From: Escherichia coli
GTDB taxonomy: Bacteria > Pseudomonadota > Gammaproteobacteria > Enterobacterales > Enterobacteriaceae
Assembly: GCF_003334305.1 (NCBI RefSeq)
Contig: NZ_QOWS01000053.1
Direction: 5' to 3' (one strand)
Length of the DNA: 3,207 nt
Of the stretch, positions 1 through 3,207 are shown piece by piece; position 1 is the first letter of the stretch; each line of letters opens with the position of its first letter. The translations under genes were made by a program, and so were the position numbers. Under the pieces are notes generated by a model. The model was given only the letters and a program-made list of their open reading frames with translations, was not told the origin of the DNA and did no database searches.

Positions 1-800
1 GGAGCGATCATGCGAAACTCTGGCTGATCTGTGTAAGCGTCCAGTTTGTCTGCAAAGAAGACTATTTCTGGATCATAAAATTCCGGTTGATTCAGCGTCG
101 ACAGAGAGGCTTCTCCCTGCATAATCCGTTGATTAAACGCCAGCCACTGGGCGGTGGGATTAACATGCGAAGGTACTGATTCACGCAACCTTAATATTTC
201 GTCCGGTATATTCTGGCTGAACGTAGCATTTGGTATATATGCATAATTCATGTGGCACATATATTGTAGTGGCATATCTACAGAAGCCAGATTGGTTACG
301 GCCATCTTAATATCGAACAATGTAGAGGATTTGTGAAGGACCACTGTTGGCTGAGCCAGATAATGATGCCCGAACCCCATTACATACTCGTAACGCCCGG
401 TAAGGCGTAACATATCTCCCTCTAATTCCATCCATGCTTCATCCATCGCGGCACAGGCCATTTCACCGTGTAGCAGATGAGTATCTTCCGCAGATGGGCA
501 GCCATTAGCCAGCAAACCTGAATGAAAGGCAAAACAGCCATAGGTCTCTATCACCTCTGTCGCCGGTTTAGGCTGGCGAAACATATTGCACATGGTGAGA
601 CTGTGTCCATCAAATTGCGCATCCCAAATCATCTGCCCCATCCAGGGAAGAATAATTAAATGTCCACGACTGTTTGCAATTTTAAGCCCCTCGACACCAC
701 TGTCATAGCGAAAAGACGTGACAGTAAAATCACTATTTTCCAGCAAGATACGAGGTTTTTCGCCAAAAAGCGCCCGCCACAAATTAATACGCGTACTCAT
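1..800 (-). CDS. deoX: Third operon gene, 5' portion only (266 codons in window, 3' end beyond the left edge); deoX-like protein of unassigned biochemical function, possibly a sugar mutarotase-like enzyme
   Basis: Seen in sequence: translating the minus strand by hand from ATG 800..798 gives an open frame with no stop down to position 3. N-terminus MSTRINLWRALFGEKPRILLENSDFTVTSFRYDSGVEGLKIANSRGHLIILPWMGQMIWDAQFDGH...; the last residues in the window are ...LDAYTDQPEFRMIA. A strong Shine-Dalgarno GAGGAG (813..808) lies 7 nt upstream and overlaps the permease stop codon. This ORF is absent from the supplied ORF track, presumably because it has no stop in the window. The deoX name is from operon position only. 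Confidence 0.7.
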   Translation of the reverse strand, partial: MSTRINLWRALFGEKPRILLENSDFTVTSFRYDSGVEGLKIANSRGHLIILPWMGQMIWDAQFDGHSLTMCNMFRQPKPATEVIETYGCFAFHSGLLANGCPSAEDTHLLHGEMACAAMDEAWMELEGDMLRLTGRYEYVMGFGHHYLAQPTVVLHKSSTLFDIKMAVTNLASVDMPLQYMCHMNYAYIPNATFSQNIPDEILRLRESVPSHVNPTAQWLAFNQRIMQGEASLSTLNQPEFYDPEIVFFADKLDAYTDQPEFRMIA

Positions 801-807
801 AACGGTT

Positions 808-813
808 CTCCTC
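808..813 (-). promoter_or_regulatory. Ribosome-binding site for the third gene (GAGGAG), overlapping the deoP stop codon
   Basis: Seen in sequence: minus-strand 5'-TGAGGAGAACCGTT-ATG-3', where TGA (814..812) is the permease stop. Confidence 0.7.
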
Positions 814-2128
814 AGGACGCTGTGACTTCAGCCAGTGCGGTACGTACTTTGCTTTCACGCCAGAAGTAGACTCCGACATAGACAAAGCAGAGCATAGAAA
901 CCAGGAATGAAAGCTGAAGTGAGTGGAACATATCTGCAATATATCCCTGAATTGCCGGAACCACAGCGGCGCCGACAATAGCCATAACAATGACTGCTCC
1001 TGCCATTTCTGTATGTTCGTTATCAACTGTATCCAGTGTTCCTGCATAGATCGTCGCCCAGCAAGGGCCAAACAAAACACTTACCAGGACGGCGACATAG
1101 ACCGCGCTGAAACTTGGAGCCAGTGCAACATATGCCAGGAACAGCGCCCCTATAACGGAATAGAGAATCAATACTTTTTCCGGATTAAAACGCGTCATAA
1201 GGATGTTGGCTATAAACTTGCCAATAAAGAAGCAGGCAAAGCTATAGACCATGAAGTTTGAAGCATCACGTTCGTTGATATCGCCCAACTCCAGCGCCAG
1301 ACGGATGGTAAATGACCATACTGCGACCTGCATACCCACATAAAGGAATTGAGCCACAATACCACGACGAAAGCGCGAATTTTTAGCCAGATAGCGCAGC
1401 GTATCCATTGCTGACGGGCGTTTATGGTGACTTGTCTGTGCCACTTTACAGGTTGGGAAGCGGGTTAAAAGGAACAACACCATGACCACAACCAGAATCA
1501 TAATCATATACTTATACGGTTCAAGGGTGTTCTCTAACATCAGCACCTTAAAGTTGTGAATTTGCTCGGCGTTCATTCCGGACATCTGCTTCTCAAGGCT
1601 TTCCCCCTCGGAGAAAACCAGATATTTGCCCAATAAAATACCAGACGCAGCACCAATCGGATAAAAGGTCTGGCTGATATTGAGCCGCAATGTGGCATAG
1701 GCTTTTGGACCGATCATTGAACTGTATGTGTTCGCTGCAGTTTCAAGGAAACTCAGGCCAATCGCAATCGCAAAAATAGCTGCAAGGAACATAGTGTAGG
1801 TTGCCATATGCGAGGCAGGGAAAAAAAGTGTACAACCACCAATATACAGCGTCAGGCCAATTAAAATTGCCACCTTATAACTGGTCTTTTTAATCACAAG
1901 GGATGCTGGTATTGCAATTAAAAAATAACCTCCATAAAATGCGCTCTGCACCAATGCTGAAGCAAAGTTACTTAGCGAAAATACACTTTTGAATTGAGTG
2001 ATTAATATGTCATTTAATGCAGCTGCGCATCCCCATAGCGGGAATAAACACGATAACAAAATAAACTGGAACAAGGGAGTCTTATTCAGATATCCATCAG
2101 GCATCTGAATGATGTTTTTATCGTTCAT
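812..2128 (-). CDS. deoP: MFS transporter of the L-fucose permease (FucP) family; putative deoxyribose:H+ permease (438 aa)
   Basis: Seen in sequence: intact 438-aa ORF, stop TGA at 814..812. The protein is hydrophobic throughout with many predicted membrane-spanning segments. Its N-terminal region (LFPLWGCAAALNDILITQFKSVFSLSNFASALVQSAFYGGYF) aligns by eye with my recollection of E. coli FucP (LFFLWAVANNLNDILLPQFQQAFTLTNFQAGLIQSAFYFGYF). Shine-Dalgarno AAGGT (2139..2135) lies 6 nt upstream of the ATG at 2128. It sits 27 bp downstream of the kinase stop on the same strand. Confidence 0.85.
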   Translation of the reverse strand: MNDKNIIQMPDGYLNKTPLFQFILLSCLFPLWGCAAALNDILITQFKSVFSLSNFASALVQSAFYGGYFLIAIPASLVIKKTSYKVAILIGLTLYIGGCTLFFPASHMATYTMFLAAIFAIAIGLSFLETAANTYSSMIGPKAYATLRLNISQTFYPIGAASGILLGKYLVFSEGESLEKQMSGMNAEQIHNFKVLMLENTLEPYKYMIMILVVVMVLFLLTRFPTCKVAQTSHHKRPSAMDTLRYLAKNSRFRRGIVAQFLYVGMQVAVWSFTIRLALELGDINERDASNFMVYSFACFFIGKFIANILMTRFNPEKVLILYSVIGALFLAYVALAPSFSAVYVAVLVSVLFGPCWATIYAGTLDTVDNEHTEMAGAVIVMAIVGAAVVPAIQGYIADMFHSLQLSFLVSMLCFVYVGVYFWRESKVRTALAEVTAS

Positions 2129-2134
2129 AGTGCT

Positions 2135-2139
2135 ACCTT
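2135..2139 (-). promoter_or_regulatory. Ribosome-binding site for the permease gene (AAGGT on the minus strand)
   Basis: Seen in sequence: minus-strand 5'-AAAGGTAGCACT-ATG-3'. Confidence 0.6.
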
Positions 2140-2155
2140 TAACTGTGCAGGATGA

Positions 2156-3076
2156 TTATTCGTTTAAGGTTAAAAATTCATTAAATTGTTCAATACTCGG
2201 ATAAGATGATTGCGTACCTTTCCCTGTGACGCTGAAAGCGGCAAAGAGAGCGGCTTTTTTCAAAGCGGCTTCAACATCACCGCTTTGAACATAATAATGG
2301 GAAAAGCAACCAATAAATGCATCACCAGCGCCACTAGTATCAACAGCATTTACTTTGAATGCAGGAACATGGACTTCCTGATCGCGGGTCATCCATAATG
2401 CGCCTTTTTCGCTCATGGTAACAATAATATTGTTCAGCCCTTTATCAACTAACGAACGCGCAGCCAAACGAATATGATCATAAGTATCAACCGACATACC
2501 TGTTAATATTTCCAGTTCTGTTTCATTCGGGATAAAGAAATCACATTTGCAGGCATAAGACATATCTAACTCACGCAATGCCGGAGCCGGATTTAATAAC
2601 ACTTCAATACCATTTTTCTTACCAAACTCAATCGCGTGGTAAACTGTTTCCAGTTGAACTTCCAGTTGTAAAACGATCAATTTGCATTTTTTCAGATCTT
2701 CTGCAGCTCGATCGATATCTTCCGGGGAAAGAAATTTATTCGCTCCCTTAATTATTAATATACTATTGCTCGAGTTGGCATTAACAAAGATCGGTGCAAC
2801 ACCACTGCTGGTACAGGGGACCTTCTCAACATAAGTGGTATTAATTCCCCATGATTCAAGATTACGAATAGTATTATCCGCAAAAATATCATCACCTACT
2901 TTAGTCAGCATCAGGACTTTTGAATTCAATTTAGCCGCCGCCACCGCTTGATTAGCACCTTTCCCACCACATCCGATTTTGAAGGCAGGTGCTTCCAGAG
3001 TTTCTCCTTCTTTAGGCATCTGATTAGTGTAAGTAATGAGATCCACCATATTGGAACCAATAACTGCAATGTCCAT
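2156..3076 (-). CDS. deoK: Ribokinase/PfkB-family sugar kinase, most likely deoxyribokinase (306 aa from ATG at 3076; the ORF track's 315-aa version starts at 3103)
   Basis: Seen in sequence: intact ORF with stop TAA at 2158..2156. Ribokinase-family motifs are present in the translation: N-terminal MDIAVIGSNMVD, GGKGANQAVAAAKL, NPAP, NETE and the C-terminal DTSGAGDAF signature. The ATG at 3076 has a Shine-Dalgarno AAGAGGT (3089..3083) 7 nt upstream; the ATG at 3103 has none. Substrate (deoxyribose rather than ribose) is inferred only from operon context with a FucP-like permease. Confidence 0.85.
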   Translation of the reverse strand: MDIAVIGSNMVDLITYTNQMPKEGETLEAPAFKIGCGGKGANQAVAAAKLNSKVLMLTKVGDDIFADNTIRNLESWGINTTYVEKVPCTSSGVAPIFVNANSSNSILIIKGANKFLSPEDIDRAAEDLKKCKLIVLQLEVQLETVYHAIEFGKKNGIEVLLNPAPALRELDMSYACKCDFFIPNETELEILTGMSVDTYDHIRLAARSLVDKGLNNIIVTMSEKGALWMTRDQEVHVPAFKVNAVDTSGAGDAFIGCFSHYYVQSGDVEAALKKAALFAAFSVTGKGTQSSYPSIEQFNEFLTLNE

Positions 3077-3082
3077 TTCACT

Positions 3083-3089
3083 ACCTCTT
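3083..3089 (-). promoter_or_regulatory. Ribosome-binding site for the kinase gene (AAGAGGT on the minus strand)
   Basis: Seen in sequence: minus-strand 5'-TAAGAGGTAGTGAA-ATG-3', with GAGG 7 nt before the ATG at 3076. Confidence 0.7.
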
Positions 3090-3207
3090 ATAAACTTTCG
3101 CATAACAATGGTATTTAAATAACATTAGCATGTTACTTTTGCATCATTTGTGACTGAGATCGCGATTAGCACATCAACCCGATGTTTATTTAATAGACTT
3201 CCAGTCT
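3090..3207 (-). promoter_or_regulatory. 5' leader and promoter/operator region of the operon (partial; continues beyond the right edge)
   Basis: Seen in sequence: AT-rich non-coding stretch upstream of the first gene. A candidate extended -10 (TGcTAATGT, minus strand 3130..3122) is present, but I found no convincing -35 hexamer. Exact promoter elements cannot be fixed by eye. Confidence 0.4.
3120..3135. repeat. Perfect 6-bp inverted repeat TAACAT-tagc-ATGTTA; candidate repressor operator
   Basis: Seen in sequence: 3120..3125 TAACAT and 3130..3135 ATGTTA are exact reverse complements separated by 4 bp. The repeat overlaps the candidate -10 element. Confidence 0.35.

Follow-up and report, generated by a model that had tools for sequence, protein, structure and literature searches.

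The deoQKPX deoxyribose regulon was reportedly first described in Salmonella enterica, by Tourneux et al. (2000) and Christensen et al. (2003). The present analysis deals with a stretch of 3,207 nucleotides of Escherichia coli DNA (contig NZ_QOWS01000053.1), here called the window at its full length, which very probably represents most of the deoK operon of E. coli (deoK-deoP-deoX), that is, the structural genes of this regulon. The operon is already known and well described, and the finding as such is not new. A route of deoxyribose utilisation through deoK and deoC has been described (PMC6365646). E. coli Nissle 1917 (EcN), which has deoQKPX, grows on deoxyribose and K-12 does not (PMC7924626); K-12, being without these genes, fails to grow on this sugar unless rbsK is mutated or amplified (PMC7924626, PMC6452873), and its RbsK has a weak, readily evolving side activity on deoxyribose (PMC6452873). 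In Salmonella, deoK mutants and strains without deoK also fail to grow on deoxyribose (PMC13432705). Three papers that cite Bernier-Febreau 2004 and Martinez-Jehanne 2009 report these genes to be commoner in pathogenic isolates (PMC7545054, PMC6455142, PMC7924626).

When the E. coli locus was compared with the S. enterica regulon (cited in PMC6365646, PMC7924626 and PMC2808357), the same four genes were found in the same order, including the divergent regulator. The intergenic palindromes, a CRP-like block and the dependence on a host deoC are shared as well. The two differ in location, since the Salmonella copy stands between intact ilvN and uhpA, whereas the E. coli copy is found in tRNA-linked islands, where these two genes survive only as scraps. 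They also differ in sequence: the DNA is about 80% identical, GC content at third codon positions (GC3) is 0.34-0.47 in E. coli versus 0.53-0.65, and the intergenic region measures 305 nt in E. coli versus 313-324 nt. The same element as in the window is known from the deoK operon of E. coli pathogenicity islands (PAI), namely PAI II-AL862 and the LAC PAI at pheV (PMC7545054, PMC6455142), ROD 40 of NCTC 86, Nissle 1917 and CFT073. As reported for those islands (PMC5382810, PMC6455142), it often adjoins the vpe phosphotransferase system (PTS) operon. The islands examined here lie at serX, leuX and selC, which adds insertion sites beyond pheV.

More distant likenesses were found within K-12 itself. 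The core genes rbsDACBK-rbsR and fucPIKUR encode members of the same families, a PfkB ribokinase and a permease of the FucP subfamily of the major facilitator superfamily (MFS), but they are paralogues with other partners and regulators, and they belong to the core genome, unlike the accessory cassette. The E. coli DeoR/deoCABD system resembles the regulatory part: DeoQ is a close relative of DeoR, and the operators of both share TGTTA...TAACA arms and occur as multiple spaced sites. In contrast, DeoQ is a separate regulator with an operon of its own, which scores just under the cut-off of the DeoR model (230 bits, cut-off 244), and the central bases of the operators differ.

Every long open reading frame (ORF) in the window sits on the minus strand, in the order, from right to left, kinase, permease and third gene. 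The kinase gene deoK (2156..3076, minus strand) encodes a 306-aa PfkB/ribokinase-family protein, the predicted deoxyribokinase; its ATG start at 3076 is preceded by the Shine-Dalgarno sequence AAGAGGTAG (3081..3089, minus strand), read, like those of the other two genes, from the sequence. It is followed by deoP (812..2128, minus strand), an ORF for a 438-aa FucP-family MFS permease presumed to be a deoxyribose:H+ symporter, with the Shine-Dalgarno sequence AAGGTAG (2133..2139, minus strand) inside the deoK-deoP gap. The third gene is the 5' part of deoX, also called deoM (1..800, minus strand), for a predicted deoxyribose mutarotase. It is truncated by the left edge of the window after codons 1-266 of 337, and its Shine-Dalgarno sequence GAGGAG (808..813, minus strand) overlaps the deoP stop codon at 812-814. 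The reading frame of deoX is open over all 266 codons in the window, and the full 337-aa gene is annotated in the matching genomes. The intergenic gaps amount to just 27 nt (deoK-deoP) and 11 nt (deoP-deoX) and each gene has a good ribosome-binding site (RBS), so that the three genes were considered to form one operon. The window holds part of the cassette, as deoQ and the 3' end of deoX fall outside; its right end (3077..3207) is non-coding and consists of the 131 nt next to deoK, out of a divergent control region that measures 305 nt between deoQ and deoK. Neither an Rfam family nor a tRNA was found in the window.

The start of deoK at 3076 is the annotated one in all matching E. coli genomes examined. 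A longer deoK ORF beginning at 3103 was considered and rejected, since the ATG at 3076 has the strong AAGAGGTAG RBS and the orthologues align from 3076. The extension to 3103 would also cross the operator.

At the protein level, the closest relatives of the genes in the window were deoK, deoP and deoX in the same order and beside the same divergent regulator, and not members of a core ribose or fucose operon. The initial annotation of the window (a reading made from the sequence alone) had named three outcomes that would speak against its proposal of a deoxyribose cassette, namely best hits to such a core operon, a GC content like that of the host and the lack of a DeoR-family regulator nearby, and none of these was obtained. 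Identity to the S. enterica proteins was 96% for DeoK and DeoP and 84% for DeoX and DeoQ. DeoK displays the motifs GGKGAN (residues 37-42), NETE (184-187) and GAGD (249-252), and its Met10 aligns with Asn14 of RbsK. The residue equivalent to Met10 is said to have been singled out by Tourneux et al. (2000) for deoxyribose preference. A sequence search of the PDB placed DeoK nearer to the ribokinases of mouse and human (E 7e-63) than to RbsK of E. coli (E 8e-49). As in deoQKPX, a FucP-like permease, DeoP, stands directly downstream of deoK, and its nearest solved structure is FucP (3o7q).

For DeoX, sequence searches were uninformative and returned a weak match to Pfam DUF4432 only, no NCBIfam match and no PDB relative. 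An AlphaFold2 model was built from 35 homologues (pLDDT 83.8). It matches the aldose 1-epimerase / galactose mutarotase fold, with 3ty1 as the best hit (TM 0.73, E 1e-13) and GalM structures next. The modelled fold fits the description of DeoX as the deoxyribose mutarotase DeoM, an enzyme reportedly treated by Assairi (2004). One source names a 59%-identical DeoX homologue "deoxyribose mutarotase", and the name deoM is in use, with deoM adjoining deoK in Azospirillum (PMC3899980). The substrates and enzyme activities of DeoK, DeoP and DeoX are taken from the literature or from homology and should be regarded as predicted. A residual form of deoX was observed in NZ_CP104384.1, which retains positions 1-151 of the window only; this piece of deoX bears the annotation "aldose epimerase family protein".

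The regulator gene deoQ, of the DeoR family, lies on the opposite strand. In each of the E. coli copies examined it starts at window-equivalent position 3382, which is 305 nt upstream of deoK and 175 nt past the right edge of the window. The initial annotation had indeed placed the start of an expected divergent regulator outside the window and had proposed that a DeoR-family gene be sought in the flank, where it was found. It had further described an ATG at 3182 as the only plus-strand ATG near the right edge. This codon does run into a stop after three codons (MFI*), but it is not the sole plus-strand ATG there, and those at 3108 and 3130 also end quickly. A plus-strand GTG at 3150 is open to the window edge and is out of frame with the true deoQ start.

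Two overlapping DeoR-type palindromes (3107..3135), AATGGTATTTAAATAACATT at 3107-3126 and TAACATTAGCATGTTA at 3120-3135, lie over the deoK promoter and leader and are presumed operators for DeoQ (and DeoR). A third, near-identical palindrome, AATGTTATTTTTATAACATT, is located beside deoQ at window-equivalent 3344-3363; it stands beyond the right edge of the window, as do the deoQ promoter and the deoQ start. A CRP-like site of putative function, TGTGACTGAGATCGCG (3149..3164), was found 73-88 nt upstream of the deoK ATG. Scans for promoters (14 promoter-like sites versus 10.9±3.0 in shuffled sequence) and terminators (2 terminator-like sites versus 4.3±2.2) did not rise above expectation in the window. 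Since these scans were uninformative, the sites in the control region were judged by cross-genus conservation, using an alignment of 12 deoQ-deoK regions from 8 genera. The palindromes, the RBS, a deoQ-side TATAGT box and the CRP-like block appeared as conserved islands in otherwise drifting intergenic sequence. Nearly all columns of the palindromes are invariant among E. coli, Salmonella, Citrobacter, Raoultella, Klebsiella indica, Leclercia and Silvania, and both the block ATCGCGATC..AGTCACAAATG of the CRP-like site and the core AGAGG of the deoK Shine-Dalgarno sequence are invariant in the 12 sequences. Three DeoQ operators, with catabolite repression of deoKPX alone, were reportedly described by Christensen et al. 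(2003). In their sequence, the conserved palindromes and the CRP-like block agree with that three-operator description as well as with the reported binding of palindromes by DeoQ (PMC2222622). Repression by DeoQ and a dependence on CRP are predicted for the E. coli operon from the literature or from homology.

The initial annotation had described the coding DNA as AT-rich on the basis of three hand counts. These counts were exact (50.0% GC at 1-60, 33.3% at 1861-1920 and 38.3% at 2701-2760), and the full computation leads to the same description. The GC content of the whole window is 43.25%, with 46.1% for the deoX portion, 44.6% for deoP, 40.1% for deoK and 33.7% for the non-coding positions 3104-3207. 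As a reference, 25 E. coli core genes were taken from the fetched loci; these have a GC of 0.529±0.033 and a GC3 of 0.589±0.055, the lowest single GC3 being 0.476. The GC3 values of the cassette genes were 0.339 (deoK), 0.472 (deoP), 0.447 (deoX) and 0.433 (deoQ), corresponding to z = -2.1 to -4.6 against the reference set, so that both GC and GC3 are well under those of E. coli core genes and are not typical of the host. The codon-usage distance to the core set was 0.37-0.47 for the cassette genes versus 0.25±0.06, which is 2-3.8 standard deviations off. The codon adaptation index (CAI) relative to ribosomal-protein genes was ordinary (0.32-0.41 for the cassette versus 0.42±0.07) and gave no sign of foreignness.

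The distribution of the cassette was evaluated by megablast. It was detected in 1621 of 5426 complete E. coli genomes (~30%), with 98.3-99.8% identity, and the carriers nearly always have one copy, on the chromosome. Some E. coli genomes match the window at two or three places. The cassette was not found in K-12 MG1655, C600, J53 and ER1709, as the initial annotation had stated for K-12; a chimeric query composed of K-12 uhpBA, the cassette and K-12 ilvNB matched only the ilvN/uhp locus in these strains. In ATCC 43896 the cassette belongs to an island of ~74 kb between the tRNA-Ser gene serX and a tyrosine integrase, together with fec, Ag43, CbtA/CbeA and many insertion sequence (IS) elements. 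The cassette islands of the ST131 strains MB1159 and NDM2 are at the tRNA-Leu gene leuX and that of L2_E1649 at the tRNA-Sec gene selC, and pheV islands also carry the deoK operon (PMC7545054, PMC6455142). The exact DeoK protein was examined in ten additional contexts, all of them island-like and eight with the vpe PTS operon alongside. The cassette displays the features of an island member, with variable presence, tRNA adjacency, tyrosine integrases, IS elements and low GC3; the tRNA genes, integrases and IS elements are all outside the window itself.

Carriage on E. coli plasmids was considered as well and was rejected. The three PLSDB "plasmids" with the cassette (CP054241.1, 0.83 Mb; NZ_OL790696.1, 4.8 Mb; CP061233.1, 1.0 Mb) appear from their size to be mislabelled chromosomes or pieces of chromosomes, and genuine plasmid-borne deoK-deoP-deoX is known only as distant relatives in Vibrio (V. 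casei), Peribacillus and Erwinia. As to the serX island of ATCC 43896, its integrase is located at the end far from tRNA-Ser, beside two features annotated as RtT sRNA. K-12 presumably has pga-ycdT between phoH and serX; this region is not annotated in ATCC 43896 at serX, and a rearrangement may have taken place there.

The sequence common to the different contexts is a module of 4.6-4.8 kb, which in the ATCC 43896 locus covers 14783-19541, equivalent to window positions -217 to 4541 (4.76 kb). Its order is uhpA scrap, terminator, deoX, deoP, deoK, deoQ and ilvN scrap. A decayed 3' piece of ilvN abuts deoQ (ATCC 43896 locus 19166-19400, window-equivalent 4166-4400), and in some islands the terminator and the first ~60 nt of uhpA are found beyond deoX; in loci L084 and L085 the flank-fossil span is 19553-19786, window-equivalent -447 to -214. 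In Citrobacter, Salmonella, Raoultella, Klebsiella indica, Leclercia and Silvania, deoQKPX is located between ilvBN and uhpABC, with the full arrangement ivbL-ilvB-ilvN / deoQ / deoK-deoP-deoX / uhpABCT in S. enterica, and the same divergent organisation of deoQ and deoKPX was seen in about 70 of the species examined. K-12 ilvN and uhpA are adjacent, 75 nt apart (7728-7802 of the K-12 locus), and this spacer, which contains a terminator, is the same sequence as that found after deoX in the other genera. Since fossil ends of ilvN and uhpA lie at the edges of the module, it appears to have been cut from a chromosome that had the cassette at the ilvN-uhpA site.

Other explanations were weighed against that of a working deoK operon. 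The genes could form a second ribose or fucose system, with a ribokinase and an L-fucose permease, and not serve deoxyribose. Salmonella DeoK phosphorylates ribose too (PMC13432705), and the generic models TIGR02152 (ribokinase) and TIGR00885 (fucP; 324 bits for DeoP, cut-off 280) are passed. However, identity to K-12 RbsK and FucP is just 37% and 35%, and the specific models fail, since DeoK reaches 251.6 bits on the enterobacterial RbsK model NF008353 (cut-off 341) and DeoP 285 bits on the E. coli FucP model NF007524 (cut-off 427). No rbsDACB/rbsR or fucIKUR genes were found near the cassette in the loci examined. The 96% identity and full synteny connect it with the experimentally characterised Salmonella deoKP, and Salmonella strains without deoK fail on deoxyribose, as mentioned above. 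A ribose or fucose system is thus very improbable. Nothing in the analysis contradicted the deoxyribose operon, although some points limit its assignment and its control. In all the matching genomes listed, the cassette genes carry the RefSeq/PGAP labels rbsK, fucP and "aldose 1-epimerase family"; on sequence grounds, the rbsK and fucP labels are attributed to systematic over-annotation from generic family-level TIGRFAM models. Met10 is not exclusive to deoxyribokinases, as mammalian ribokinases carry Met at the same position. The CRP-like site has a single good half-site, with a perfect TGTGA and 3/5 matches in the other, and the presumed substrate specificity of DeoP and DeoX goes back to work on Salmonella. 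It was also considered that the cassette in the window might be a decaying, non-functional relic, as pseudogenes and fragments of IS elements abound in the island DNA around it and the scraps of ilvN and uhpA have themselves decayed. Against this, all three reading frames of the window are intact, with five differences from the nearest genome, none of which alters a protein, and conservation extends to the RBSs, the operators and the CRP-like site. Moreover, a comparison of the two most distant island alleles of E. coli gave a difference of ~10% in the ilvN scrap and of 2.7% over the whole module, indicating that the cassette genes are under purifying selection. A relic is hardly credible.

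The origin of the cassette is a more balanced matter. In the classical view, E. coli received it by horizontal transfer from S. enterica or from some other foreign genus, after which it became part of pathogenicity islands; a passage in PMC5382810 relays the statement of a Salmonella donor. The scraps in the module are indeed from ilvN and uhpA, between which deoQKPX stands in Salmonella, the GC and GC3 values are atypical for E. coli, and the native ilvN-uhpA site lacks the cassette in every one of the 5426 complete E. coli genomes. The flank fossils point in another direction. The ilvN scrap shares 90.6-92.3% identity with the native gene of E. coli, against 79% with that of Citrobacter, 75% with that of S. 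enterica and no more than 83% with any other, and in neighbour-joining (NJ) trees the scraps nest among the E. coli alleles, in a clade recovered in 99.8% of 500 bootstraps. On the uhpA side, identity is 88-90% to E. coli, 86% to S. diarizonae and 77% to S. enterica, and the E. coli-specific motifs TATAGACGAT and ACCCGCCAGGACAAGAC are present. The cassette DNA itself is 80-82% identical to the nearest Salmonella and Citrobacter copies, a distance that equals or exceeds the one between Salmonella and Citrobacter. Expressed as amino acid / nucleotide distances, the cassette gave 0.097 / 0.194 for E. coli-Citrobacter, 0.098 / 0.208 for E. coli-Salmonella and 0.069 / 0.164 for Citrobacter-Salmonella; the flanking core genes gave 0.061 / 0.170, 0.066 / 0.173 and 0.078 / 0.165, respectively, and the cassette tree mirrors the core-gene tree. 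No DeoX of 85-98% identity to the E. coli type was found among 5.8 billion proteins, and the named members of the E. coli-type DeoX cluster are all E. coli. Taken together, a scan of GTDB species, that protein search with its cluster members and the contigs encoding the exact protein yielded no non-E. coli copy above 85% DeoX identity and no native-site Escherichia copy. A foreign import is therefore doubtful. From its sequence, the last chromosomal home of the module looks E. coli-like and not Salmonella-like, which differs from the donor statement in PMC5382810. It is somewhat probable that the module is an escaped native locus and not a Salmonella import, formerly at the ilvN-uhpA junction of an E. 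coli-type chromosome and now carried only as cargo of tRNA islands, with the native site emptied or refilled with low-GC cargo in all 5426 complete genomes. The escape would probably have occurred by IS activity, taking along ~235-280 nt of E. coli-like ilvN and ~60 nt of uhpA. Against an E. coli origin counts that gene conversion of the scraps by the resident ilvN locus may also account for their likeness. The initial annotation had called the cassette accessory and probably horizontally acquired; it is variable, island-borne and spread among E. coli strains, as that description implies, but the flank fossils argue against a fresh import from another genus.

The ilvN-uhpA junction of E. coli was found to be variable in its own right. 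In ~1,900 of 5,422 genomes it breaks exactly at the ilvN stop codon. The B2 strain Seattle 1946 has an insert of 1465 nt at this place (locus 4536-6000), with 35% GC and a DUF6708 gene, at the end of which the final 12 nt of ilvN are repeated, and O157:H7 has one of 3418 nt (locus 2583-6000), with 35.5% GC and three hypothetical genes. From these breaks and inserts, the junction was considered an insertion hotspot. No deo remnants were found in the Seattle 1946 or O157:H7 inserts. Among other taxa, Klebsiella sp. BIGb0407, an uncultured Cedecea and an uncultured Enterobacteriaceae have the cassette away from ilvN/uhpA, with an unusually low flank GC of 0.40-0.42. In a locus of Bacillus methanolicus the genes are arranged as deoP-deoX-deoK, and protein identity is 56-69%.

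In the proposed pathway, DeoP, as a FucP-family MFS proton symporter, would import free deoxyribose, and DeoX/DeoM would speed the interconversion of its anomers to provide the form used by the kinase. DeoK would then phosphorylate C5 with ATP to give deoxyribose 5-phosphate, which the aldolase encoded by the core gene deoC (deoCABD operon) would split into glyceraldehyde 3-phosphate and acetaldehyde. When deoxyribose is absent, DeoQ would bind the palindromic operators overlapping the deoK promoter and leader, and the conserved CRP-like site would put the operon under catabolite control. No deoC was found in the cassette in the loci examined, and because it has none of its own it can be seen as a plug-in to the core deo system.

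For the ~1,600 genomes with the cassette, the rbsK and fucP labels would lead metabolic models astray. According to three papers, deoxyribose released by DNA breakdown in the gut would give carriers a colonisation advantage, and the cassette would act as a metabolic fitness island (PMC7545054, PMC6455142, PMC7924626). If the module is an escaped native locus, its low GC would reflect the AT drift of a long-term accessory locus and not a foreign donor, and the E. coli-like flank fossils would change the usual account of where the cassette came from.

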